Assembly: GCA_963842525.1 (NCBI GenBank)
Contig: CAWJGT010000003.1
Location: forward strand, 32,001 to 96,000
Source of the DNA: an uncultured Holophagales bacterium
Lineage (GTDB): Bacteria > Acidobacteriota > Thermoanaerobaculia > Multivoradales > UBA5704
DNA: 64,000 nucleotides
Direction of reading: 5' to 3'
Shown here: piece by piece, positions 10,649 through 46,898 of the stretch
Numbering within the stretch: position 1 is the stretch's first letter
How the letters are laid out: every line of letters begins with the position of its first letter
The notes under the pieces: generated by a model
What the model was told of the DNA's origin: nothing
The model's input: the letters and a program-made list of their open reading frames with translations, nothing else
Databases searched by the model: none
Program-made: the position numbers and the translations under genes

Positions 10649-10973
10649 TATCCACCGCGGCGTAAGCTTATCCACCGCAACATATCCTTATCCACCGCAG
10701 CGAAGCTTATCCACCGCGACGTAAGGATATCCACCGCGACATAAGCTAATCCACCGCGTCTGGCGTTATCCACCGCGAGATAAGAATATCCACCGCGACG
10801 TATCCTTATCCACCGCAAGATAAGCGTATCTGCCGCGACGCAAGGATCTCCACCGCGACTTAAGCGTATTCACCGCGTCTAGCTATAGCAGTAGCGTATC
10901 ACGATCTCACCGCAAGATAAGCTTCTCCGCCGCGACGTAAGCTTATCCACCGCAACTTAAGCTTATCCAGAGC
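10649..10973. repeat. Degenerate tandem array, ~17 units, 19-20 bp period, core TATCCACCGC
   Basis: Cores (some with mismatches) read at 10649, 10669, 10689, 10708, 10728, 10748, 10767, 10787, 10807, 10827, 10847, 10867, ~10905, 10924, 10944 and 10964, plus one decayed unit near 10886. Confidence 0.95.
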
Positions 10974-18046: not shown

Positions 18047-18254
18047 CCTCACCCCCTGTCCCCCTCTCCCATCGCCCCCCCTGCCCCCGGGAGAGGGGGG
18101 ACCTAGATGAGGCCGGTCCGCGAGACCCAATGCTGTTCGTTCAGTTGAGTTGTCTGAAGCCGTCTTCGGCCATAGATCGGCACGGACGCCTGATCTACGT
18201 CCCCCCTCTCCCGGTCGGTGGGGGGGCGATGGGAGAGGGGGACAGGGGGTGAGG
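18047..18254. repeat. REPIN/MITE-like palindromic element, copy 1
   Basis: Arms CCTCACCCCCTGTCCCCCTCTCCCATCGCCCCCC ... GGGGGGCGATGGGAGAGGGGGACAGGGGGTGAGG around a ~95-bp core. Confidence 0.9.
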
Positions 18255-29672: not shown

Positions 29673-29750
29673 GCTGGAAACCTCCTTCGTGACGTGGTAC
29701 CAGCCCGGGTACCGGGCCCGCTGACGTACTGTGCAAGAGCCGGGCCGGCT

Positions 29751-30388
29751 TCACCCGATGGAGCGTCGGAACACCGCCCGTACGCACACGAGCGCCAGCA
29801 GCCATCCGGAGATGACGTCCAGGATGTGATGCTGGTGGATCAGGACGGTGGAGGCGGCGATCAGGAGGGCCCATGACCAGAGCAGGATCTTGATCCCTCG
29901 GGGAGCGCGCGGCGAGAAGACTGCGACGCAGACGACGGCGAAGGCGACGTGTAGCGAAGGCACGAGGTTGTAGGTGAGGTTCAGCCGGTCGGCGCAGTGA
30001 TAGAGACCCGCCCAGATGCCCAGCTCTCCTTCTGAAGGCGGCGGGAAAGCAAGCTCTGCGGGGACCAAAAGAAAGCCGATGCCGCTCCCCAGGATGAGGA
30101 CGGCCATCGTGGCGACCAACGCGCGAAACTCGCGGCGGGTCCTGACGACGAAGGGCGCCAGGACGAACAGGAGGTACAGCGACATATAGAAGACCGTCAT
30201 CGCGGGGACGAAGGGGATGCGGAAGCTCCATCGGCAGATGGACGGCCAGCCGCGGGCTGCGGCGCGCGGTCAGGAGGTCCGCCCCGCCATAGACGAAGGC
30301 GAACCAGAGGCTGTTCGCGAGCGACAGCAGCCCCGCAGATCGAAGATGGGGCCAGCCGGGCCAGGCTAGGAAGGGGTCCAGGGGTCAC
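29751..30388 (-). CDS. PAP2-like membrane phosphatase/phosphotransferase; frameshift near 30220, start uncertain
   Basis: N-terminal part LWFAFVYGGADLLT...HLPMEL joins IPFVPAMTVFYMS; motifs PSLHVA and STVLIHQHHILDV. Confidence 0.75.
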
Positions 30389-31295
30389 CCAGGTACTGCA
30401 AGACCGCCGCAACGAGATCGCGCACATCCGCTTTCGGCTGCAGGTAATGGTCGGCGCCCCACACTGGATAGACCAGCCCCGGCCGGGCACAGACATCCGC
30501 GAGGACCAGTCCTCCGTCGTTGGGTCCAAGCGGAGTGAGCCGGCGATGGCAGCGCCGCGCGATAGCGCGGGTCAGATGCACACGGAGAGGGAAGCCCACG
30601 ATGCTGATCATCTGGATGTGCGCCGGCAGACGCAGCTCACAGTCGAGCGGGTGCCCGGGACCGTAGAGCAGGTCGTCGAGGAAGCCCAGGCTCTGCCCGC
30701 GCAGCTTGTAGTAGAGACGGTTCAGCACCGCGCCCGGGCTCCGGGACAGCAGCCACTCCGCCATCGGAGTGCCTTCGAGGATCCCGCAGAGGCTGACCCA
30801 GCCGATCACGTTTTCGAACGCGGGCCCGGCGCCGGGTTGTGCCAGCGCCATCTTCAGATCCGCGCCACCTTTGCTCAACGAAGCCAGGATGATGCGCCGC
30901 CGCGGCTGCCGCGCCAGCCAATCGCAGATGATCCGGGCATTCTGTTGCAAGGTTCCGGTGCTCGCGATCGGGATGAGGTCCGTCGGGCAGCCGAGCCGCT
31001 CCGCCTGCTCCCGCACGACGTGGCCGTCCGCGCCGGAGCGCGGATTCTCCCGGTAGAAGACGCCTGGGACGATCACGAGGATCGTTTGCGGGTCCCAGGC
31101 GGCCGGCGCCCGCCGGCCGCGGATCTCTTCGATGCGGCGGATGAACGGTCCATGGATCGGCGACTCCCGCACGCTGCGATAGAGCAGGGTCGTCGCCGCA
31201 TCGATCCCATCCCTGGCAGCGATCTCCCGCAGCTCGCCGGCGCTCGGGAGCGTCGCGCGATCGAACAGCACCGGAGCGTCCAGCGCCGCCATCAT
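30366..31295 (-). CDS. Alpha/beta-hydrolase-fold protein (lipase/acyltransferase-like)
   Basis: VIVPG, SLSKGG nucleophile elbow, NDGG and ADH (putative Ser-Asp-His triad). Confidence 0.65.
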   Translation of the reverse strand: MMAALDAPVLFDRATLPSAGELREIAARDGIDAATTLLYRSVRESPIHGPFIRRIEEIRGRRAPAAWDPQTILVIVPGVFYRENPRSGADGHVVREQAERLGCPTDLIPIASTGTLQQNARIICDWLARQPRRRIILASLSKGGADLKMALAQPGAGPAFENVIGWVSLCGILEGTPMAEWLLSRSPGAVLNRLYYKLRGQSLGFLDDLLYGPGHPLDCELRLPAHIQMISIVGFPLRVHLTRAIARRCHRRLTPLGPNDGGLVLADVCARPGLVYPVWGADHYLQPKADVRDLVAAVLQYLGDPWTPS

Positions 31296-31884
31296 GCCGG
31301 CTTACGGCGCCTGCCGAGAAGGAAGCCGGCCAGCCAGTCCCACGACGAGCGCGATGCCGCCCTGCCCACCAGGCCTGCGCTTGGCCATCGCCAGGAGCGG
31401 GTTGTCGAAGAGGTTGTCGGACATGTGCAGGTTGGCGACCAGCCAACGGTCGCCTTCCTTGACCAGCGTGGCGCTCCACCGCGCAGGCAGATCGAACGTC
31501 CTGCCGCTGGTCATCCGGAAGTGCTCGACACGCGCTTCCGAAGGCGATGCCGGTGTCGCCGCCGTAGAGGATGGTGAGCTCATCCACCTCGACGTCCGCC
31601 TTGTAGCTGTCGACGGCCTTGTCCGGGCCGGTCAGCATGCGGTTGAGGTACGTGCGCACGCCGTCGCGTCCGCGGCTGACCTCCGCGTTGTGCCAGGTGA
31701 CGGCCACATTGGGATGGAGATAGGTGAGCTGGCGCTCGATGTCGCCCTTGCCCATCGCATCGAGCAACCCGTCCCGCAGTGCGCGCAGCTCGTTGTGAAC
31801 CGCTTCATCCGGCGGCGGCGCTTGCGACGACATCGGTACGGCTGCTACGCACAGGAGCATCAGAGCTGCGACCGTTGTCTTCAT
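31292..31884 (-). CDS. Exported NTF2/SnoaL (DUF4440-like) protein with C-terminal TM anchor; 2-3 frameshifts
   Basis: Signal peptide, SRGRDGVRTY, then in another frame RWSATLVKEGDRWLVANLHMS; the stop overlaps the next ATG (ATGA at 31292-31295). Confidence 0.65.
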
Positions 31885-32881
31885 CTTGACCCTTTCGTGG
31901 CAGCGTCGCCACCCAGTGGAAAAAGTCGATCATGTCCTGATCGTTCGGTCCAAGACTCGCAGGGTTATATCGGGTTGCACGTAGACGGCGCGTCTCGTCC
32001 TTGAGATATCCGTGCGTGAACAGCCTGCGCACCCACAATTGCAGCGGCGTGAAGAGCCGCAGCGGGAACGACGCTCGGCGCGCCAGGACAATCCCCTGGC
32101 ACAACGTCCGGCCGTCCTCCAGAGGCTCCATCACGAGGAGGAAGCCGCTTCGCACGCGGGCGAAGTCGGAGGTGATCACGGCGAAGGTCCCGCCCCAGAT
32201 CGTCAGCGTGATCTTCACCGTACGCCCCGCGCCGACCCGCAGGAAGTGGTCGAAGATCGTATGCCCCACGACTTTCGCCTCGTAGCTGTTGCGCCGCGCG
32301 AAAGGAGCCGGGCAGTCGATCGCGGGCGGCCCCAACAACTCGCGGTCGTGGACGGCCGCGAAGTGCTGCCGGTCGAACGCGTGCGCCGAATTCATGTACC
32401 AGGTGCAGTCGGCGACATAGCTGAACAGCTTCGCCGCCACGAAGTCCTGCGGCTCCGCGTCCAGGAAGAAGGGCAACGGAAAAGGAGCCTCGCTCCCGTT
32501 GAAGAAGAAGAGATAGCCATGCCGCTCCTCGACGGGATAGGTCCGCAGGCAGGCAAAGGAGGGAATGTGCGATGAATTCGGGATCGACGTGCAGACGCCG
32601 TCCGTGCCATAGCGCCAGTTGTGGAACGGACATTGAATCGTCTCGCCGACCACCGATCCCAGGCCGAGGTCCGCGCCCAGGTGCGTGCAATGCGCGTCCA
32701 TGAGCGCGACGCGTCCGCTCGCCGTCCGAAAAGCCACCAACTGCCGTCCCAGGATGCGCTTGGAGAGAGGGCCCTGGAGCAACTGCCGGCTCTCGCAGAA
32801 GAGATACCACGACGGCGGATAGGCGGAGAAGGCGTCCGCCGGAGGAGCCTTGGGTAGACTAATGGATGACTTTCCCAGCAT
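31805..32881 (-). CDS. Rieske [2Fe-2S] non-heme oxygenase (KshA/VanA-like)
   Basis: CTHLGADL...CPFHNW Rieske motif; DRQHFAAVH mononuclear-iron motif. Confidence 0.9.
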   Translation of the reverse strand: MLGKSSISLPKAPPADAFSAYPPSWYLFCESRQLLQGPLSKRILGRQLVAFRTASGRVALMDAHCTHLGADLGLGSVVGETIQCPFHNWRYGTDGVCTSIPNSSHIPSFACLRTYPVEERHGYLFFFNGSEAPFPLPFFLDAEPQDFVAAKLFSYVADCTWYMNSAHAFDRQHFAAVHDRELLGPPAIDCPAPFARRNSYEAKVVGHTIFDHFLRVGAGRTVKITLTIWGGTFAVITSDFARVRSGFLLVMEPLEDGRTLCQGIVLARRASFPLRLFTPLQLWVRRLFTHGYLKDETRRLRATRYNPASLGPNDQDMIDFFHWVATLPRKGQDEDNGRSSDAPVRSSRTDVVASAAAG

Positions 32882-33779
32882 AGCGATTCTCCACGCGCTC
32901 ATCGGAAAACTGCGGGCCGCGCCATTCGTGCAGATAGGCCTTGAGCAGGCTGCCGCGCCCCTCCTCCCGGGAGGAGAGAGAGGGCAGATGGATCCACGGG
33001 ACCGTCGGGCGCATGTGATGATTCAGATGCCAGTTGTGGTTCAGCCAGACGAGGTCGAGCAGCCGGAACGTGCGCAGGTTCAGCGCCCCCTTCTGCACAT
33101 GGCGCTCTGTCCCGTAATGGTGCGCGTACTGCATCGCCGACCAGGTGAGCCCGAAGCCGAACAGCACCACCAGGTAGGAAAGAATAGGAATGCTCCAGAA
33201 ATAGATCAGCGCGGCATGCAGGAGGATCGCCGCCAGCGCCTCCGCCTGGATGAGCCGGCGGTATTTCGGGTTCAACGACTCCAGGAAGGCTTCCGTGGGC
33301 CGGTTGAACTTCGTATAGCGCGGTGTGATGATCGACGGCCGCAGCGCAACGACGAAATTGGTGAGGAGGATGAGCACCCAGAACATCCCCGTGAGCGTGC
33401 CGTAGAGCTGGACGTATTTCCAGAAGCGGTTCTCGTCCTCGAAATACAGGTCGAACGCTTCGTCGTCCGAGCGGTTGCGGATGTGATGGCCGATGTGTCC
33501 CTGGCGGATCAGGTGGAACGGCGCGGGGAAGAAGAGCGCCAGGATGGCCCCCACGGTTTGATTGACCTTGGGATTCGGATGCAGGAGGTTGTGCTCGGCC
33601 TCGTGCAGCATCGCGTAGCCCGAGTTCATCGTGATCCCATAGGCCAGGGACAGCAACGCGATCCAGCCCCAGGAATCGACCTGGCCCGTTGCCCAGAGGA
33701 TTGCACAGAGGCAGACGACCTGAGCCGCAGCGATGCCGAGGTTCAGCCGCGCGGGGATCGGAAACTCGGAACGGCTCAT
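32859..33779 (-). CDS. Membrane fatty acid desaturase-family protein
   Basis: His boxes HEAEH, HIGHH and HLNHH; TM helices. Confidence 0.9.
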   Translation of the reverse strand: MSRSEFPIPARLNLGIAAAQVVCLCAILWATGQVDSWGWIALLSLAYGITMNSGYAMLHEAEHNLLHPNPKVNQTVGAILALFFPAPFHLIRQGHIGHHIRNRSDDEAFDLYFEDENRFWKYVQLYGTLTGMFWVLILLTNFVVALRPSIITPRYTKFNRPTEAFLESLNPKYRRLIQAEALAAILLHAALIYFWSIPILSYLVVLFGFGLTWSAMQYAHHYGTERHVQKGALNLRTFRLLDLVWLNHNWHLNHHMRPTVPWIHLPSLSSREEGRGSLLKAYLHEWRGPQFSDERVENRYAGKVIH

Positions 33780-34684
33780 GGTACGACCTCCAGCCGTGGG
33801 TGATAACCACAGAGCTTCAAGCCGCGGAATTCCGGCGCTCGATCGAAGCGGGCGAACGTCCTTGGGACGATCTCGCGCGAGTAGAGGGACTTCCTGTACG
33901 CCTCGTCCCGGGACAGCGCCAGCAGCTCGCGCCGCATTTCGGGCAGGCGCTCGCGCAGCTCCGGCAGCTCGCGCACCAGCTCGTCGAGTACGTGCAGTTG
34001 GGCGCGCTTCGGTGCCGCGAAGAATTCCTCCATCATCCAGGCGAACAGCTTCGCATTCATCGTGCGCAGGAAGGGGCGAGCACGCAGCCACAGCGCATCG
34101 AGGAGCTCCTCGTCCCAGCGCACATGCCGCGCTTCGTCCGCCAGATGAAGCCGATGCGTCGCGACGAAGGAGGGCTCGATCGTCGTCGGATTGCGGAGAT
34201 AGCTTCGCGAATAGAACAGGGACCGTTCCTCCTGGAGGAGCATCAGCCAGAGGAACAGAGGGAAGGAGAGCGGGTGATTCACGGTCCACCGCAGGACCGG
34301 CACCAACACGGCAGGGGTCTTGATGAAACAGGTATTCCGGTTGCCATAAAGGTGAGGGGCACAGCGCTGGTTGAGCCGCCGGAACATCTCCGTATGCTGC
34401 CGTTCCTCGTCGCGAAACTGCCGCAGCCCTTCGGCAAGCCGGTCCGGCCACGGCTCGCGAAGCAACGCGGCGAGGAGCGGCCCGAGGGCCGCTTCGAAAA
34501 ACATGATCTGTTCGTTGAAGTAGAGCGCGTGGAGCTGGTTGTACCGCAGGCGCTGCTCCGCCGTGAGCTCCCGGTACGACGGTGTGTAGAAGAGAGGCGT
34601 GAGCTCGGCCGGAATGAAGGGTTTCCCTACATCGAGGGGAGCCTCTTCAAGGAGGGACGCCACCGCCATTGCATTCATGGTCAT
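33776..34684 (-). CDS. AurF/CmlI-like diiron oxygenase
   Basis: TPLFYTPSYRELTAEQRLRYN, E...FE, EERQH, EE, HLADEARH diiron ligands. Confidence 0.8.
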   Translation of the reverse strand: MTMNAMAVASLLEEAPLDVGKPFIPAELTPLFYTPSYRELTAEQRLRYNQLHALYFNEQIMFFEAALGPLLAALLREPWPDRLAEGLRQFRDEERQHTEMFRRLNQRCAPHLYGNRNTCFIKTPAVLVPVLRWTVNHPLSFPLFLWLMLLQEERSLFYSRSYLRNPTTIEPSFVATHRLHLADEARHVRWDEELLDALWLRARPFLRTMNAKLFAWMMEEFFAAPKRAQLHVLDELVRELPELRERLPEMRRELLALSRDEAYRKSLYSREIVPRTFARFDRAPEFRGLKLCGYHPRLEVVP

Positions 34685-34690
34685 TCGAGT

Positions 34691-36232
34691 CTATGCCTCG
34701 TACACAGCAGCGTCAACGTGTTTTCCGAACACCTCGGCCCATCCAGGCTCCGGCGACAGGGCCAGCGGCTTGACGTCGCCCAGCCGCTGGCCGCGCTGGC
34801 GGCAGCGGTCCAGATACAGGGCAAAGGCACCCTCGTCCAGCGGCGCGACCGTCACCGGCGCGAGCTGACCGAGCTGGCGGCAGAGACGGTATTGCGGGTT
34901 GGCCGACAGCTCTTCGTCGAGGATCTCCGGGAGGGCTGGTGAATGGCTCCTGGATTCCAGATAAAGGATGTAGCCGGCCGGGAGCGCGCAGGCGGGAGCG
35001 AGCAGGGCAAAACGGGGCGCCAGGCCGACGCGCCGGAACGCACGGTCGAGAGCTCCGGCCACGAAGGCTTCGTGAAGCTTTTCGCCGCGCAGGTCGGAGA
35101 CGTGGCCCTCCTTGCCAAGGAAGCGGAGAGAAGGCGTGCGGCCGAGGAAGCCTTCGACGCGCACGCGGTCTTCCAATCGGTAGCGGTAGAGCCCGCCGCC
35201 GGTCGTCACCACCACCGAATATATGCCCCCCTCCTCGAGCTCCCACGCGAAACGCGGATGTCCGTCCTCGAGGAATTCGAAAACGTGAGAGCGGATCGCG
35301 AGCGGCCATTTTCCCGCGAAAGGAATCGTCACGAACCCTTCCGTGGCAAGCAGCCCTTTGGGCTGGATCTCCACTCCCGGGAATCTGCGCGCCAGGCCGG
35401 AAAGAGCGAGGGCCGCATGAGCGTCCCCCCAGCAACTGATCAGGCCGAGGCGAGGCCAGATGCGGACCGGCTCTTCCGGAGAGAGGCGCCGCAGCTCGGC
35501 GGCCCGGCGCGGATCGAGGTCCCGCAGGAGGGATTCCCAGAACGCCGGCAGGGCCTCCAGCAGGAGAGTGAGGAAGCTCGGGTGCCAGACGGAAATCAAC
35601 GACAGATCGCGGCGTCGGAGGAGGAAGAGCAAAGTCACGTAGCGGAAGGTGTCGACATCCTTGATATGCCTGACAGCCCCTGGCACGGCCAGCGTGGCGT
35701 CGGCGAGCCGCTGCCAGAAGCCGCCCAGGTATGCGGCGTCCTCCTCGAAGCCGACCCGGACGGCCGAAGGCGCCTGCTCCTCGTTCGTCTCGATTGGGGT
35801 GATCGACCAGTAGGCCGAGCCGAGGGCGAGCCGGGGCCTGCACGCATAGAGGTCGAACACCCAGGGGGCCACGGCGTGGCGGATCTCCCGTTGCATCTCT
35901 GAAGTATAGGGAATGAGCTTCGCCGCCGCTGAGGAGCCGCCGGTGGGCTCCAGCGTCCGCACAGGCGAACGGGTCAGGACGCCGGCCTCGCCAACCCGGA
36001 TCCGCTCGACCCACGGCGCGACGTCCTCCCATGAAGCAAGGGGAACCCGGTCCTGGTATTCCTCCGCGGTCCGGATCTCCCCGAAGCGGTGCGCGCGGCC
36101 GAAGGCGGTGCCGGCGCTGTCACGAAGGTAGCCTCGAAGGAGGGCACGCTGGATGGCCTCCGGGTCGTCGAGGGCCTGGCGGAAGCGGAGGTAGCCAGGG
36201 AGATTGGCTGCGAGCCAGGGGAGGGACCTCAC
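34691..36232 (-). CDS. GH3-family acyl-acid amido synthetase
   Basis: TAFGRAHRF, YQDRVP, EPTGGSS...KLIPYT, LLATEG, VVTTGGGLYRYRLED, GEKL, NPQY; GTG start lies in the repeat arm. Confidence 0.88.
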   Translation of the reverse strand: MRSLPWLAANLPGYLRFRQALDDPEAIQRALLRGYLRDSAGTAFGRAHRFGEIRTAEEYQDRVPLASWEDVAPWVERIRVGEAGVLTRSPVRTLEPTGGSSAAAKLIPYTSEMQREIRHAVAPWVFDLYACRPRLALGSAYWSITPIETNEEQAPSAVRVGFEEDAAYLGGFWQRLADATLAVPGAVRHIKDVDTFRYVTLLFLLRRRDLSLISVWHPSFLTLLLEALPAFWESLLRDLDPRRAAELRRLSPEEPVRIWPRLGLISCWGDAHAALALSGLARRFPGVEIQPKGLLATEGFVTIPFAGKWPLAIRSHVFEFLEDGHPRFAWELEEGGIYSVVVTTGGGLYRYRLEDRVRVEGFLGRTPSLRFLGKEGHVSDLRGEKLHEAFVAGALDRAFRRVGLAPRFALLAPACALPAGYILYLESRSHSPALPEILDEELSANPQYRLCRQLGQLAPVTVAPLDEGAFALYLDRCRQRGQRLGDVKPLALSPEPGWAEVFGKHVDAAVYEA

Positions 36233-36417
36233 CCCCTGTCCCCCTCTCCCATCGCCCCCCCACCGACCGGGAGAGGGGGGACGTTGTTGAAGCTTCCTTT
36301 GCGAGTCCATGGCCGTTTCGAGGCACATGGCTTCGACCTTGCCACTGGGGCACAAGCCACGTTCCCCCTCTCCCGGTCGGTGGGGGGGCGACGGGAGAGG
36401 GGGCTAGGGGGTGAGGT
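36226..36417. repeat. REPIN/MITE-like palindromic element, copy 2, inside the operon
   Basis: ACCTCACCCCCT...GGGAGAGGGGGGACGT, core, ACGTTCCCCCTCTCCC...GGGGGTGAGGT. Confidence 0.9.
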
Positions 36418-37113
36418 CATCCCCACATCCTCCGCCCCGCCCGCGTCAAGTTTTCTTCCGCCAACTCGGTCAGACAGACGAGGCTCGTCCCCTCGCACCC
36501 AGCCGGGGTTCCTCTCCAGGAAGAAGGCCACGTGAGGATCTTCCAGCCGGCCCGGCGGGATCTCGGCGCATCCCTCCCGCAGCACCTGCGGCTCTGGGAA
36601 GCGGACGATCCCTTCCTTGTCTCGATAGAGATCGCCGAATCGCTCTCGGGCGAGGAAGCCGAGCAGCTCCCGGACCTCCGGCGGTGTCGTGCCGTCGTGG
36701 CGCGGCCAGAAATCTCGCCAGAAGACGGGGAGGAAGCGGTAGGTGCGGAAGCCCGAGGTCAGGAGCAGCCACCAGAGCCTTCCCCGGGGATTGCTCTCGC
36801 GCAGCGTGCGGACCGCGGCGATCCAGCAGCGGGGGAGCGCGGCGGTGCCCCAGGCGTCCTGCTCGACGATCGTGTCTCCCGAGTAGACGACGGTGACCGG
36901 CTCGCCTCCCGGCGGTGTCGTTTCGTAGATCCGGAGCGTCGAAAAGCCCCGGAGGCAGCCGTCCTCTTCGAGGAGCAGCGCCCAGTTCTTTTCGGCGAGA
37001 TCGGCTGCGAAGCGCTCGCGCGTGACCCCGGCGAAGTAGGCGGCGAGCAGATCGAGCATCGCCTCCCGCTCCGCGCTTGTCAGCTCTTCGCGACGCACCA
37101 GACGACCCCTCAC
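36417..37113 (-). CDS. GNAT-like protein; frameshift near 36483
   Basis: LRGFST, VVYSGDTIV...WGT, LLTSGFRTYRFLP, FFLERNPGW..GDELVCL after a frame change; GTGA overlap with the upstream gene. Confidence 0.7.
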
Positions 37114-38216
37114 AGCAGCGCCGCCTCGACATGGGGGAGGAGGCTGCCGTCGAGGGCCGGTTCCTCGTCTCCATCCCAGTGGACGGTGTACAGGACGCTC
37201 GCATATTCCCGCGGGCGGAAGCGGCGCTTCAGCCACGGCAGCCAGGGGTGGTGGGCCGCGAGGCCGAGGACCAGATAGGAGAGCCGCCGGGCACAGGCTT
37301 CCGCGTGGGCAGACTCCATGAGGGCCCGGAAGACCTCCGGATCGTCGCGGTCGACTGCCAGGTGCGAGACATACGCGTGCGGGAGCGGCTCGCCGGGATC
37401 GGGCAGGCGCGGCGTGCCCAGCCAGCGGCCGAGCCGGTTCAGAAGGGGGCGCCAGCGGGCGAGGCGCGGGCCGTAGCCGCGGACCACCACCTGTTTGAAC
37501 GAGCTCTGGTCCCAGATTGCCAGGCAGCCTACCACCTCGCCGTCCACCATGGCCAGCCGGAAATCCTCCGGCGCCAGCCCGCGGCTGCGCTCGTTCGACA
37601 GGAGCTCGGCCTCGGTGAAGAAGGGGGCCGCCTGGTAGCGACGGCGATTGCGCGCCAGGCAAGCCGCCACTTCGCCCATCAGTCTGTGCGTGCCGCGCTC
37701 GATGTGGACCGACGCTCGTCCGCGACGCGGACGGAGCGCCGGCAGGATCAGTGTCGAGAAGCCTGCCAGCTCGCGATAGCGGGGCAGACCCGGCACGCTC
37801 GCTTCGAGGAGGCGGCGGGCCATGCGGTTGTCCGCGATGATCGAGGTCACGTCGAAGGGAGCTTCGTCCGGCCGCCGGAGATCCTTCAGGATCCGGTAGC
37901 CGCCGGCGAGGAGCCGGACCCGTCCCCGGTAGGCCCGGTCGAGCCGGAGCTGGGCGAGGTAGCCCAGCCGTCGCGGCGTGCCGTCCACAAAGGCGTTCCA
38001 GACCGACCGGCTGCCCATCCCCACGATCTCTCCTGTCGCCGGATCGCGGGCGACCACCGTGTGATGCGGCTCCCCCTCGACTCCGGCGGCCAAGAAGGCG
38101 CTCGGCTCCCGCTCCAGGGAGACCCGGATCTCTCCCTCCATGGGGTTGTCGCGCAGCAGACGCCGGAGCCCCGCGTCGTCTTCCGGGTTCTCCGGGGTTG
38201 CGAGCTCGATCCTCAC
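37110..38216 (-). CDS. GNAT-like N-acyltransferase (tandem GNAT folds)
   Basis: IELAT...DD, LEREP, IVGMGSRS, LGYLAQLRLDRAYRG, TSIIADN..ARRLL. Confidence 0.7.
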   Translation of the reverse strand: MRIELATPENPEDDAGLRRLLRDNPMEGEIRVSLEREPSAFLAAGVEGEPHHTVVARDPATGEIVGMGSRSVWNAFVDGTPRRLGYLAQLRLDRAYRGRVRLLAGGYRILKDLRRPDEAPFDVTSIIADNRMARRLLEASVPGLPRYRELAGFSTLILPALRPRRGRASVHIERGTHRLMGEVAACLARNRRRYQAAPFFTEAELLSNERSRGLAPEDFRLAMVDGEVVGCLAIWDQSSFKQVVVRGYGPRLARWRPLLNRLGRWLGTPRLPDPGEPLPHAYVSHLAVDRDDPEVFRALMESAHAEACARRLSYLVLGLAAHHPWLPWLKRRFRPREYASVLYTVHWDGDEEPALDGSLLPHVEAALL

Positions 38217-38227
38217 TCTGGCCTTTC

Positions 38228-39586
38228 TCAGCTCGCCAACAGCAGCTCGCCCTGCCAGCCCTCGTCGCCCAGCGGAAAACGGTTGCGGCCGTCGACGTCC
38301 GAGCGGTGGAGGTAGTTGATGAGGAAGAAGTTGCGGAACATGAAGCCGTCCGACCGGTTCACCCGGTCGACGGACCGCCGCAGGATGCTCGGCCAGGAGT
38401 AGAAGGACCGCCGGGCCTCGACGCAGCAGCGCTCGACCTCCTCGGCCGTCATGCTCGCGGGCCGGAAGGGGACCTTGTTGTAGCTGTACTCGTCGTCCAG
38501 CCACCAGGCCTCGTAGAGGAGCTTGCCCTCGGCTTCCAGGCGCCGGTAGAGCGGCGTGCCCGGGAACGGCGTCAGATGGTTGAAGGCCGCGATATAGAAG
38601 CCATGCTCGCGCGCGAAGGCCACGGTCTCCGGGAAGCAGCCCGGCGTGTCGTCGTCGTAGCCGAAGATGAAGGTGCCATAGAGGCGGATGCCGTGCCGCC
38701 GCAGGTTTGCGAGCGCCTTGAGATAGCCGCCGCGCATGGTGTTGAAGCTCTTGTTCATGACGCGGAGGTTGTCCGGGTTGAGGCTCTCGAAGCCGATCAG
38801 CACGCCGCGGCAGCCGCTGCGCCGCAGGAGGTCGAGCAACTCCTCGTCGTGCGCGGCGTTGATGCTCGCCTGGCTGACCCAGCGGATGCCCAGCGGGATG
38901 AGGGCGCGGTAGAAGTCCTTGGCCTCCTGGAGGTTCGAGGTGATGTTGTCGTCGACGAAGAAGATCAGGCGCGCCTGATGGCGGATCTCCTCGATCTCGG
39001 CAAGGATCTCGTCGATCGGCCGCCGGGTCTGGGTGGCGCCGAAGACGGTCTGGACGGCGCAGAAGTCGCAGCGGAAGTGGCAGCCGCGGCCGGCCTCGAC
39101 GAGCCCGATGGGAAGATAGCGCTTGCCGCGGAAGATCCGGCGGTCGGGGCGGACGCCGGCCAGCGACGTGCGTCCCTGCTGGCGGTAGAGCTTGCGGGGA
39201 CGGCCGTGGCGCCAGTCGTCGACCACCTCCGGCCACAGCGCCTCGGCCTCGCCGACCACGACCGCCTCGGCGTAGCGGGCCACCTCGTCGGGGCAGAGGC
39301 TGGCGTGGAAGCCGCCCATCACCACGGGCACGCCGCGGCGCCGGTACTCGGTGGCGATCTGGTAGGCCCGCCGGGCCGTGTAGGTCTCGACCGACATGGC
39401 CACGAGGTCGGTCGGCTCGTCGAAAGGGATCGCCTCCATCCGGTCGTCGTAGAAGCGGACCTCGACGTCCGGCGGAGTCAGGCCGGCGATCAGGGCCGGC
39501 GGCAGCGGCTCCATCTGCCAGGTGCGGATGTAGGACCGGTCGCCCGCGCGGCGGCCGATGCACGGGTGGATGAGGGTGAGCTTCAA
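38228..39586 (-). CDS. Cobalamin-dependent radical SAM enzyme (second)
   Basis: VVMGGFH, VVVGEAE, RGCHFRCDFC, FFVDDN, IGFES, TPFPGT; TTG start overlaps the upstream TGA. Confidence 0.92.
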   Translation of the reverse strand: MKLTLIHPCIGRRAGDRSYIRTWQMEPLPPALIAGLTPPDVEVRFYDDRMEAIPFDEPTDLVAMSVETYTARRAYQIATEYRRRGVPVVMGGFHASLCPDEVARYAEAVVVGEAEALWPEVVDDWRHGRPRKLYRQQGRTSLAGVRPDRRIFRGKRYLPIGLVEAGRGCHFRCDFCAVQTVFGATQTRRPIDEILAEIEEIRHQARLIFFVDDNITSNLQEAKDFYRALIPLGIRWVSQASINAAHDEELLDLLRRSGCRGVLIGFESLNPDNLRVMNKSFNTMRGGYLKALANLRRHGIRLYGTFIFGYDDDTPGCFPETVAFAREHGFYIAAFNHLTPFPGTPLYRRLEAEGKLLYEAWWLDDEYSYNKVPFRPASMTAEEVERCCVEARRSFYSWPSILRRSVDRVNRSDGFMFRNFFLINYLHRSDVDGRNRFPLGDEGWQGELLLAS

Positions 39587-40927
39587 GCCGCCTGCCTCGA
39601 CCGCCCCAGCCCCAGGATCCAGTCGCAGTTGTAGAAGCGGTGCAGGTTGTGCGCGTAGAAGCGGTAGCCGAGGTTGGTGCCAATGCGCACCGGCCAGGGG
39701 CTGGGTGACGCCGCGAGCCGCCGGACGATGGAGCGCACACTGTAGGCGTACCGCCAGGCTGTCTCGATTCCGCTCTGGAGCTGCTCGACGGTCATCTGCG
39801 CCGGCTGGAAGACGACGTGCTGGCCGTCGTAGAGCTCCCAGTTGCGGGTGAGGATGCGGCCTTCGCTGTCGAGCCGGTGGAACAGGGCGGTGCCGGGAAA
39901 GGGGGTCACCATGGCGAAGCGCGGCAGGTCGATCCTGGCCTCGACCGCGAACCGGGCGGTCTCCAGGAAGACCTCCGGCGTGTCGTGGTCCAGGCCGAAG
40001 ACGAAGCAGCCCTGGAGCGCGATGCCGTGCCGGTGGAGGGTCTCGACCAGCTCGCGGAAGCGCTCCGGAGAGTTGAAGGCCTTCTTCGAGTCGCGCAGGT
40101 TCTCCCGCGAGATCGACTCCAGGCCCATGAGGAGGCCCCGGCAGCCGCTTTTCTGGGCCAGAGCGAGCAGGTGAGGATCGTCGGCCAGGAGGACGGTCGC
40201 CAGCCCGTACCACTGGACCTTCAGCGGGATGAGCGCCTCGAACAGGCGCGCCGCGTAGTCGCGGTCCGCGATCAGGTTGAGGTCGACGAAGATCAGCTTG
40301 CGCGCCCGTTTCTGTCGGATGTCGGCGACCACGTCCTCGACCGGCTTCTGGTAGGGCTTCTGCCCCCAGGCGGACGGGACGACGCAGAAGTCGCACTTGT
40401 GGATGCAGCCGCGCGTGGCCTCGAAGACGTCGTCGGTGAGGAAATGGCTGCGGGGCAGCAGATCGCGCCGCGGGAAAGGGCGACCGGCGAGAGAGAGGCC
40501 CGGCCTGCTGGTCGTAGCGCGGGCGCAGGTGGCCGGCTGCGAAATCGCGCAGCAGCTCGGGCCAGCTCTCCTCGGCGTAGCCGACGACGATCGCAGTCGG
40601 CGTGCGGCTGGGCGTCCTCCGGAACCAGGGTGACGTGCGGGCCGCCGAGCACGACGGTGATGCCGCGGCGCGGAAGGCGGCGGCCAGCTCGTAGGCCCGC
40701 ACCGCCGTGCCGGTGATCACCGTCATTCCGATCAGGTCGGCCTCGATCGCCTGCGGATCGACCTCCTCGATGCCCTCGTCGACGAGGCGGATCTCGGCCT
40801 CCAGCTCCGCCGGCACCAGCGCGGCCAGCGTGGTGAGCGTCAGCGGCATGTAGCGGAGCGACTTCTTCCAGATGCCGCCCCGGTGGCGGTAGAGCGGCCC
40901 TTTGGGGGAGATCAGGACAATCCGCAT
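39583..40927 (-). CDS. Cobalamin-dependent radical SAM enzyme (first); ~3 frameshifts near 40670, 40595 and 40505
   Basis: PLTLTTLAA, VVLGGPH, VVGYAE, TRGCIHKCDFC, FVDLN, MGLES, FVFGLD and TPFPGT found in successive frames. Confidence 0.88.
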
Positions 40928-41089
40928 GACCTATCGTCGTTCTCCGCTCTCTCTCGCTGTCAACTCGCCAGGTCGCGAGGCATCGCGAATCGGAGGCAGC
41001 GAAGTCCGTGCCAGGCCGCCTGAGACGCACAAGCGCCTGTGAACCCGGGAATGTGCCGCGGCCTGGGCGGTTTTCCCGAGGGACATTGC

Positions 41090-41153: not shown

Positions 41154-41358
41154 GGTGGTGGCGCGGGCGGGAGACCTCACCCCCTGTCCCCCTCTCCCAT
41201 CTCCCACCCTTCCATCCCCGGGAGAGGGGGGACGTAGTTGATGCCCATGTGGCGAGCTCGCGGAAGGGCTTCGGATGCGTCCCCCCTCTCCTGGCGGGGG
41301 GTGGAAGGGAGATGGGAGAGGGGGACAGGGGGTGAGGTCTCCCGCCCGCGCCACCACC
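41154..41358. repeat. REPIN/MITE-like element, copy 3, with ~50-bp perfect terminal inverted repeats
   Basis: GGTGGTGGCGCGGGCGGGAGACCTCACCCCCTGTCCCCCTCTCCCATCTCCC and its reverse complement. Confidence 0.92.
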
Positions 41359-41367
41359 AACCTGTCC

Positions 41368-41884
41368 GCCCTTCGCGCAGAGCCAAAGACATGTGACTCT
41401 GGCCCTGCGCCATGTGTCTTTGCCGCTGCGTCATGGGCGGAGCGCCAGAGACTTTAGCCGCAGCTTCACTGCCAGGTGTCTTTGCGGCTCTGCCCTTGGC
41501 GCAGAGCCAAAGACATGTGACTCTGGCCCTGCGCCATGTGTCTTTGCCGCTGCGTCATGGGCGGAGCGCCAGAGACTTTAGCCGCAGCTTCACTGCCAGG
41601 TGTCTTTGCGGCTCTGCCCTTGGCGCAGAGCCAAAGACATGTGACTCTGGCTCTGCGCCATGTGTCTTTGCCGCTGCGTCATGGGCGGAGCGCCAGAGGC
41701 TTTAGCCGCAGCTTCACTGCCAGGTGTCTTTGCGGCTTTGCCCTTCGCGCAGAGCCAAAGGCATGTGACTCTGGCTCTGCGCCATGTGTCTTTGCCGTTG
41801 CGTCATGGGCGGAGCGCCAGAGGCTTCAGCCGCAGCTTCACTGCCAGGTGTCTTTGCGGCTCCGCCCATGGCGCAGAGCCAAAG
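41368..41884. repeat. Tandem array of four 124-bp units plus a partial fifth, with internal palindromes
   Basis: Unit starts GCCCWTSGCGCAGAGCCAAAG at 41368, 41492, 41616, 41740 and 41864; only a few substitutions between units. Confidence 0.97.
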
Positions 41885-42130
41885 TCGCCAGCCTGCTTTG
41901 GGCGGCCGCGGCTTCCCGGTCGATTAAAACCCTACGTTCGGCCTGGCCGGCACGTTGGGCCGAGTGGTCAGCCAGCTCCAGGCCAGTCCCTGCTTGAGGA
42001 ACCGAGGTCCATAAGAAGCTCAGGATGAGGTTGGGCGGCAGGGCAGCATGCAGATCGAGGCTGAAGAATGCCTACGCCCCTTCGGCTTCCGGAAAATTTG
42101 GGGTCGCACCTGGCGCTGAAGCGCCAGGCT

Positions 42131-42307
42131 TTACGCCCATGCCCCTTCGGCAAGCCGGCCCTCAGGGTCCTCCGCATCCCCGAGGACGCACTCCAGGCGG
42201 GCGACAGGACGCCCCCTGTCGAGGATCAGGATCGTCTCGCCGTGCCGTACCTGGTCCACCAGCGCGCTCAGGTTGTTCTTGGTCTCGGTCAGGGTGGCTC
42301 TCTTCAT
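42131..42307 (-). pseudogene. Orphan Phd/YefM antitoxin, apparently truncated at a palindromic repeat
   Basis: MKRATLTETKNNLSALVDQVRHGETILILDRGRPVARL; runs into CCGAAGGGGC...CCTGGCGCTTCAGCGCCAGG; no toxin gene downstream. Confidence 0.7.
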
Positions 42308-42351
42308 ATGGCTAGAATAGCCACGACGCTCCCCCCAAGGCAAGCCGTCGC

Positions 42352-46673: not shown

Positions 46674-46898
46674 ACCTCACCCCCTGTCCCCCTCTCCCAT
46701 CGCCCCCCCTGCCCCCGGGAGAGGGGGGACGTGGTTCGAGCGACCGAGGCGAGGTCGAAGCAGGGTCGATGCAGGACCCGTCACCAACTACATTCGATCC
46801 CGCCGAACGGCCAATGTCCTCGCCACAATCGCCTCAGCTACGTCCCCCTCTCCCGGTCGGTGGGGGGGCAATGGGAGAGGGGGACAGGGGGTGAGGTC
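46673..46898. repeat. REPIN/MITE-like element, copy 4, starting at the mdh stop codon
   Basis: GACCTCACCCCCTGTCCCCCTCTCCCAT ... ATGGGAGAGGGGGACAGGGGGTGAGGTC. Confidence 0.92.

Follow-up and report, generated by a model that had tools for sequence, protein, structure and literature searches.

A conserved gene cluster with a GH3 ligase, two GNAT acyltransferases and iron or B12-radical SAM enzymes, a candidate pathway for an amide-linked envelope lipid

Introduction

Carrier-free synthesis of amide-linked lipids has a described bacterial example in OlsH and OlsI of Singulisphaera acidiphila. OlsH, the only characterised bacterial GH3 enzyme that we found, makes N-acyl-ornithine and is paired with the alpha/beta-hydrolase O-acyltransferase OlsI (PMC12493201, section 4, among the sections considered here). 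OlsE provides a precedent for a membrane diiron enzyme that hydroxylates a headgroup (PMC12971839, in excerpt), and BchE one for O2-free oxidation by an enzyme of the B12-radical SAM (S-adenosylmethionine) type (PMC13598231). In this work we have analysed a block of eleven genes in a 64,000-nt stretch (the window) of contig CAWJGT010000003.1 from an uncultured Holophagales bacterium. The block encodes a GH3 ligase, two GNAT-fold proteins, two B12-binding radical SAM enzymes, three putative iron oxygenases or desaturases and three further proteins; coordinates given below are positions in the window unless they carry a locus prefix (L).

We propose that the cluster makes, on balance probably, an amide-linked amphiphile from precursors of primary metabolism, most likely an envelope lipid of the amino or aminoacyl type. 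The proposal takes enzyme families, intact catalytic motifs and gene co-occurrence as its observations, and the substrates, the order of steps and the product are deduced from them. The block consists of two modules: an acyl-transferring core (the radical SAM pair, GNAT1, GNAT2 and GH3) and six accessory genes.

Results and discussion

Conservation of the gene set

The initial annotation listed eleven genes, all on the minus strand and running from 40927 down to 29751, and both their number and their order were confirmed (Table 1). It further expected these genes to occur together in other genomes, which was borne out in relatives as well as in a survey of GNAT2 loci. Of 61 relatives, 14 have GH3, and a search with the GNAT2 profile picked out exactly these 14; AurF and the hydrolase (8/61 each) were confined to these carriers. 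The association of the accessory genes holds even where all six lie on another contig (G003, G019 and G027). Since all eleven families are found together again in other gene orders (in G014, which corresponds to L045 plus L055, and in L121), the gene set is not a product of chance. Among 56 well-flanked GNAT2 loci, GH3 was present in 52, GNAT1 in 50, a radical SAM gene in 45, Rieske in 26, NTF2 in 24, AurF in 13 and the hydrolase in 11. The membrane enzymes, desaturase and PAP2, were frequent companions (30 of the 56 each), and this was counted in favour of a lipid product. The smallest version of the cluster is GNAT2-GH3-GNAT1.

The named homologues nearest to the cluster proteins come from Thermoanaerobaculia, which makes it probable that the genome is of this class. 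Two of five congeners carry the cluster, and GNAT2 occurs in 8 of 301 Acidobacteriota genomes. Other carriers are Alkaliphilus serpentinus, Alysiella crassa, Burkholderia arboris, Acinetobacter baumannii, a Citrobacter plasmid, and gammaproteobacterial and Bacillota metagenome-assembled genomes. Among 712 neighbouring open reading frames (ORFs) of at least 35 amino acids (aa), no carrier protein, megasynthase, precursor peptide or headgroup synthase was present in at least three loci, in agreement with the earlier remark that the operon has no polyketide synthase (PKS) or nonribosomal peptide synthetase (NRPS) core. The description of the pathway as uncharacterised also stands: no paper on this gene set was found among the top-listed matches of a search that largely excluded subscription journals and did not extend to supplements.

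Several loci depart from the common layout. A subtype represented by L030, L031, L089, L091 and L167 contains GNAT2, GH3, two to three Rieske genes, AurF/ferritin-like genes, a hexapeptide protein, a 2Fe-2S ferredoxin and a fatty-acid hydroxylase, and is devoid of GNAT1 and radical SAM genes. In Sedimenticola (L032:10475-13198) and Alysiella (L033:1107-3815) a fusion protein with RnfD-like, FG-GAP and ASPIC/UnbV parts adjoins an oxygenase-only cluster. On the Citrobacter IncF plasmid (L058:1-28654) a five-radical-SAM cluster is flanked on one side by an alpha-2-macroglobulin operon of the yfa type and on the other by a gene for a large Ig-like protein. In Azospirillum (L059:12361-14861) a GNAT2 homologue follows genes for an NAD-binding reductase, a SET-domain protein and ABC exporters; no GH3 gene lies within 14 kb, so this orphan GNAT is also found in another context.

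Core enzymes

Pfam supports eight of the genes (rSAM1, rSAM2, GH3, AurF, desaturase, Rieske, SnoaL/NTF2 and PAP2). Neither Pfam nor NCBIfam matched the other three, of which GNAT1 and GNAT2 were assigned by fold and the hydrolase by similarity to a PDB entry. The GH3 protein exceeds the cut-offs of Pfam GH3, GH3_M and GH3_C, and residues G99, K105, T297-E298, G347, R350-Y351, D355 and the C-terminal Lys488 are invariant in 16 of 16 aligned sequences. With nucleotide-binding motifs I-III defined as in section 6 of PMC12493201, the protein has the three domains, the three motifs and the C-terminal Lys of GH3 acyl-acid amido synthetases.

The predicted structure of GNAT1 (pLDDT, the predicted local distance difference test score, of 93) has a GNAT fold, and its top Foldseek matches are all N-myristoyltransferases (NMTs; best E 2e-13). 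Superposition on yeast NMT gave a VIA Z of 22.9 and a root-mean-square deviation of 3.7 over 307 residues at 11% identity. Like the eukaryotic enzyme, GNAT1 is a tandem GNAT that aligns over its full length to the C-terminus, and the C-terminus is flush, with the same end column in 22 of 22 aligned sequences; by its tandem fold and positionally fixed C-terminus the protein is NMT-like. Catalysis by NMT uses its C-terminal carboxylate. Because of the fold, the flush end and this mode of catalysis, long-chain N-acylation of an alpha-amine is the predicted role of GNAT1. Unlike NMT, GNAT1 has no peptide substrate in its locus, and the low identity is accompanied by near ties with other tandem GNATs: a mycobacterial one lies within 1 Z of NMT and small-molecule enzymes within 1-2 Z.

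These near ties also bear on protein or peptide N-lipidation, in which GH3 would activate a tailored fatty acid and GNAT1 would load it onto an N-terminal residue. The NMT matches of GNAT1 fit such a process, as does the action of B12-radical SAM enzymes on peptides elsewhere (the ApyD model matched below its cut-off). We regard it as very unlikely, given that no conserved small ORF was found among the 712 neighbours, that cyanobacterial-type loci have no GNAT1 and that small-molecule tandem GNATs resemble GNAT1 almost as closely as NMT does.

The model of a GNAT2 orthologue (pLDDT 93) likewise has a GNAT fold, with NatD, Gcn5 and LasI tied at a Z of about 12 and no clear nearest enzyme. The family has an invariant SGDT motif and 5961 relatives at 90% clustering; no Pfam domain was found among the 120 matches listed.

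Accessory enzymes and a possible shared slot

In the AurF-like protein residues E64, E94xxH97 and E184xxH187, the diiron ligand set of ferritin-like enzymes, are invariant in seven of seven aligned sequences. It had no sequence match in PDB, and no aminobenzoate or aminophenylalanine gene was recurrent among the neighbours as clustered by similarity, a comparison made without a family-library scan. The desaturase matches the NCBIfam models for CrtW, GntB (arginine hydroxylase) and CrtR weakly, always below cut-off. For the Rieske protein the best PDB match is the steroid 9-alpha-hydroxylase KshA (E 6e-21, over the Rieske domain only), and no reductase is encoded in the cluster. The NTF2 assignment comes from Pfam DUF4440/SnoaL on an intact orthologue, and the signal peptide and membrane anchor from an alignment of nine sequences. 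The hydrolase matches esterase MGS0156 (PDB 5d8m) with E 4e-8, and its SKGG, ND(G/A) and DHY motifs are retained in five close orthologues.

PAP2 is fused in 13 loci to a domain of about 270 aa with squalene/phytoene-synthase motifs; this partner is distinct from the hydrolase. The domain has 175 homologues, and DDxxDGD is present in 118 of 120 of them. Pfam SQS_PSY was matched by six of eight members, three of them over the cut-off, in a set of which seven had been preselected by a prior PF00494 label; five members from the loci, taken alone, gave no SQS_PSY match. No PDB entry matched the domain convincingly. The hydrolase (18 loci), a membrane hexapeptide-repeat acyltransferase-like protein (14 loci) and the squalene-synthase-like domain (13 loci) never share a locus, and none of the three is present in six of 40 PAP2 loci. 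Our reading of this pattern is that the three may be alternative tail-transfer enzymes occupying one slot. Under this reading the hydrolase is more likely to be a transacylase, the activity shown for OlsI; lineage sorting could produce the same pattern.

The fusion domain raises the question of an isoprenoid hydrophobic part, with PAP2 and the squalene-synthase-like domain processing a prenyl diphosphate, the iron enzymes oxidising it, and GH3 and the GNATs attaching amino acids. The DDxxDGD motif and the label-biased SQS_PSY matches agree with this, and so do the relationship of the Rieske protein to KshA and SdmA, the weak likeness of the desaturase to CrtW and CrtR, and the domain layout of the radical SAM enzymes, which is that of HpnP-like proteins (PMC10697835, in excerpt). 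Yet the fusion family is small next to that of GNAT2, five aligned members from the loci are not recognised by SQS_PSY on their own, the domain was not found in the genome studied here and the core has no prenyl synthase. An isoprenoid product is thus unlikely.

Two further arrangements were observed among the accessory genes. Two genomes, G019 (L039 and L052) and G003 (L044 and L054), each have two paralogous accessory modules, one with the PAP2-squalene-synthase-like fusion and the other with the hydrolase and AurF. In the oxygenase-only cluster of Burkholderia arboris (L057:12473-13900) a PAP2-like region is fused to a GntB-like desaturase.

Radical SAM enzymes and three versions of the cluster

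rSAM2 matches Pfam PF02310, PF04055 and PF19864 and is 84% identical to its orthologues. rSAM1 contains CxxxCxxC and has DLN at the position of DDN in clade R2; its C-terminal piece matches Radical_SAM and DUF4070, and an intact orthologue has the B12-binding domain in addition. In a tree of pieces of at least 250 aa (FastTree, midpoint root) the radical SAM enzymes of the cluster form one family of five clades, separate from the other B12-radical SAM enzymes of the genome save one distant paralogue. All five clades are present in the clostridial loci L021 and L022 and in the Citrobacter plasmid.

Loci of at least 9 kb with GNAT2 and GH3 were grouped by their number of radical SAM genes. Of nine with none, eight have Rieske and five an AurF-like gene; in 39 loci with one to three radical SAM genes the counts are 19 and nine, and in six loci with at least four they are 0/6 for both. 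The cluster thus exists in oxygenase-only, mixed and radical-SAM-rich versions. The counts suggest that some radical SAM paralogues replace oxygenases; a strict swap is contradicted by G050, where clade R3 stands alongside AurF and Rieske, and the six radical-SAM-rich loci are drawn from few lineages. The mixture of O2-sensitive and O2-dependent chemistry pointed out in the initial annotation is, across loci, one of three versions. Similarly, a pathway built around the two radical SAM enzymes and GH3 had been envisaged: GH3 kept this place, while the nine loci without radical SAM genes put the centre of the system at GNAT2-GH3-GNAT1.

A role like that of HpnP, HpnR or GrsA/B, also suggested earlier, was not supported. 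The B12-binding, radical SAM and DUF4070 layout is shared with HpnP-like proteins, with which the comparison is one of domain layout only, and the cluster has its own five paralogue clades. rSAM2 falls far below every NCBIfam radical-SAM cut-off (HpnJ 96 against 578, HpnR 43 against 650), as does an intact R1 orthologue. Weak similarity to the HpnJ and HpnR models and the shared layout are what speaks for hopanoid modification. Against it, no squalene-hopene cyclase was matched in 13 of 14 carriers (one positive, compared with 12 of 47 non-carriers), and none exceeded the cut-off in four distant carriers or in G000 (best E 1e-4; 96% complete). Hopanoid modification was rejected on these results. 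The other part of the same explanation concerns lipids made by Acidobacteria, either branched tetraether or iso-diabolic ones. The rarity of GNAT2 in the phylum makes it unlikely that the cluster is tied to acidobacterial membrane lipids in general, a link on which the initial annotation had speculated. Taken together, hopanoids or these lipids are a most improbable product.

The Acinetobacter baumannii locus

Statements on A. baumannii refer to two records. In NZ_CP064203 (L060:11180-18859) genes for EmrA-like and EmrB-like proteins are followed, after a 154-bp gap, by four overlapping genes in the order GNAT2, GH3, TolC-like, GNAT1; the same four-gene segment is present in the second record at 95.9%. 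Two published deletion primers for A1S_1772/1773 (AmfAB, an EmrAB-like pump) match the locus exactly and one AmfCD primer does not, so the pump genes adjoin a minimal GNAT2-GH3-GNAT1 core. The TolC-like protein passes Pfam OEP and scores 201.5 bits against the TIGR01844 cut-off of 225. In the sections considered, PMC10812440 treats AmfAB as a two-gene operon said to have no outer-membrane channel gene, with no mention of the enzymes; here the TolC-like gene lies three genes downstream and overlaps GH3 and GNAT1. The same sections report that loss of amfAB changed no antibiotic minimum inhibitory concentration and lengthened the lag at pH 4.6. A review (PMC7024869, in excerpt) describes the two pump genes as co-transcribed and gives Emr pumps a part in the response to osmotic stress and in tolerance of colistin. 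The downstream locus tags had no match in the literature searched, which did not extend to supplementary transcriptome or transposon-sequencing (Tn-seq) tables that may hold data. In another locus, L026, an MMPL transporter gene flanks the cluster.

The tripartite pump recalls a secreted N-acyl amide, that is a signal, surfactant or antimicrobial rather than a membrane constituent, which the oxidases and radical SAM enzymes would diversify. The patchy distribution and the plasmid copy in Citrobacter agree with it, and GNAT2 ties structurally with LasI and has FeeM and RpaI among its structural matches. On the other hand, PAP2, the membrane desaturase and the tethered NTF2 protein suggest a membrane-embedded substrate, and most loci have no exporter. 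We consider a secreted product somewhat unlikely.

Proposed pathway and comparison with OlsH/OlsI

For the envelope lipid that we prefer, we propose the following steps. GNAT1 would act in the manner of NMT and N-acylate an alpha-amine with a long chain supplied by acyl-CoA, GH3 would adenylate a free carboxylate (of a fatty acid or N-acyl amino acid) and then form an amide, and GNAT2 would add a further acyl group. The R1/R2 radical SAM pair may tailor C-H positions by methylation or O2-independent oxidation; in aerobes, the Rieske, AurF-like and desaturase-family enzymes could hydroxylate or desaturate the chain or the headgroup. The hydrolase, if OlsI-like, would esterify a second chain onto a hydroxyl, PAP2 would add or remove a phospho-headgroup, and the tethered NTF2 protein may bind the product outside the inner membrane. 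In other loci an EmrAB-TolC or MMPL transporter encoded within the locus could move it outwards.

Both this system and OlsH/OlsI have a GH3 with three nucleotide motifs, here encoded together with an alpha/beta-hydrolase that is a candidate counterpart of OlsI, and in both the amide would be formed by an ATP-dependent reaction without an acyl carrier protein or PKS (PMC12493201, in the sections considered). The differences are several: the GH3 is not an OlsH equivalog (NF052613; 50.2 bits against a cut-off of 620), its obligate partners are two GNATs, accompanied by B12-radical SAM enzymes and iron oxidases, the hydrolase is accessory and resembles OlsI by family description, and no OlsG-type methyltransferase was seen. 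By analogy, the cluster would work like GH3-dependent amino-lipid synthesis while standing outside the OlsH/OlsI pathway. We retain the initial view that the pathway is uncharacterised, is conserved and leads to an acyl amide or lipid, shorn of its radical-SAM-centred, hopanoid-like and acidobacterial-lipid parts.

Several points weigh against an envelope lipid. The chemistry is deduced from enzyme families throughout, and the distance of the GH3 from OlsH has just been described. Not every locus has membrane enzymes: PAP2, desaturase and NTF2 are all missing from the anaerobe loci L021-L023 and L027 and from that of A. baumannii. An efflux pump suits a secreted metabolite equally well, and the acid phenotype need not involve the pathway, because it is mild, AmfCD shares it and the double mutant is rescued by one pump as well as by the other (PMC10812440, in excerpt). 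The loci are not independent either: they include kin and duplicates (L045/L055, L070/L071 and L042/L056), and many are cut by contig ends. Finally, the copy in this assembly may be decaying, given a frameshift rate about four times background.

Gene organization, frameshifts and repeats

The overlaps TTGA 39583-39586, GTGA 37110-37113, ATGA 33776-33779 and ATGA 31292-31295 were found exactly as first annotated. Desaturase/Rieske, Rieske/NTF2 and hydrolase/PAP2 also overlap, and gaps of 11 bp and 6 bp separate rSAM2 from GNAT1 and GH3 from AurF. The near-abutting coupling claimed for the whole operon holds for most junctions and fails at GNAT2/GH3, which are separated by an inverted-repeat element of about 190 bp. 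Similarity to PAP2 begins near 30384 rather than at 30200; which codon starts this gene is uncertain. Promoter and terminator scans gave no signal above chance level.

Table 1 Features of the cluster in the window
Feature	Position	Strand	Evidence and remarks
rSAM1 (clade R1), B12-binding radical SAM enzyme	39583..40927	-	Pfam on C-terminal piece; 3 frameshifts
rSAM2 (clade R2), intact B12-binding radical SAM enzyme, 452 aa	38228..39586	-	Pfam
GNAT1, tandem GNAT acyltransferase, N-myristoyltransferase-like, 368 aa	37110..38216	-	Predicted structure, Foldseek
GNAT2, single-domain GNAT, orphan family	36417..37113	-	Orthologue model; 1 frameshift near 3' end
Dispersed inverted-repeat element (like a miniature inverted-repeat transposable element, MITE, or repetitive extragenic palindrome, REP), outside pathway	36227..36416	.	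Arm matches
GH3-family adenylating amide ligase, 513 aa, intact	34691..36232	-	Pfam, motifs
AurF-like ferritin-fold diiron oxidase	33776..34684	-	Pfam AurF 66 bits, ligand alignment
Membrane diiron desaturase/hydroxylase-family enzyme, His boxes	32859..33779	-	Pfam FA_desaturase 99 bits
Rieske mononuclear-iron oxygenase	31805..32881	-	Pfam Rieske
NTF2/SnoaL-fold protein, signal peptide and C-terminal Gly-rich membrane anchor	31292..31884	-	3 frameshifts
Alpha/beta-hydrolase, lipase-type Ser-Asp-His motifs, candidate O-acyltransferase	30366..31295	-	PDB 5d8m
PAP2-family membrane phosphatase/phosphotransferase, PSLH and HxxxD motifs	29751..30384	-	Pfam PAP2, PAP2_3; 1 frameshift

Scored against intact orthologues, the operon has eight single-base frameshifts in 10,884 bases, in the four genes marked in Table 1, and no in-frame stops. 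The control ORFs had nine in 54,003 bases (47 genes scored of 82 ORFs) and the flanking genes one in 23,055 bases (19 genes); for the excess over the 54,003-base control the Poisson P is 6e-4. Most shifts are insertions, several of them within short runs, a pattern suggestive of an inaccurate consensus in a part of the genome where strains vary. A related organism (run X3) has contigs that span 29715-36252 and 36393-40968, and in these no extra base is present at the sites listed for PAP2 and NTF2; X2 contigs agree with X3 at two of these sites, and in a short X1 contig the PAP2 difference was not seen.

The contigs of related organisms break at the dispersed element, which is about 200 bp long with 24-bp terminal inverted repeats and a variable interior. 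Its copies in the window lie at 18047-18254, 36227-36416, 41175-41337 and 46675-46896 (eight arm matches, that is four pairs, with none expected), and genome-wide there are 428 arms and 121 inward-facing pairs. Upstream of the operon is a tandem repeat (41368-41884; 124-bp unit, 4.2 copies, 96% matches), followed at about 42050-42310 by what we take, by eye, to be a Phd/YefM-type antitoxin gene and a truncated partner. About 16 degenerate 20-bp units in a lower-GC stretch at 10649-10969 could be a replication origin or a protein-binding array.

Conclusions

A broader proposal is held tentatively, as possible rather than probable. The cluster may represent a cross-phylum class of amide-linked envelope lipids, not recognised before, that is made by a carrier-free core of GH3 and two GNATs. 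In C-H tailoring the iron enzymes that depend on O2 would be interchangeable with the B12-radical-SAM paralogues, of which there are up to five, and some of these paralogues would be anaerobic oxidases and not methylases. A second tail would come from an acyl- or prenyl-transferring module, and the simplest member would be the natural cargo of AmfAB-TolC.

The orphan GNAT has about 6000 relatives at 90% clustering across Acidobacteriota, Proteobacteria, Bacillota and other phyla, and their product is undescribed; search rules centred on PKS or NRPS genes would miss the cluster. The five uncharacterised B12-radical-SAM clades, together with the oxygenase-only and radical-SAM-only versions, offer a built-in comparison for non-methylating cobalamin radical chemistry. 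The cultured carriers (A. baumannii, Burkholderia arboris, the Citrobacter plasmid, Alysiella crassa and Alkaliphilus serpentinus) make the system testable, and the pathway supplies a candidate substrate for AmfAB, a studied pump that has so far been without one.

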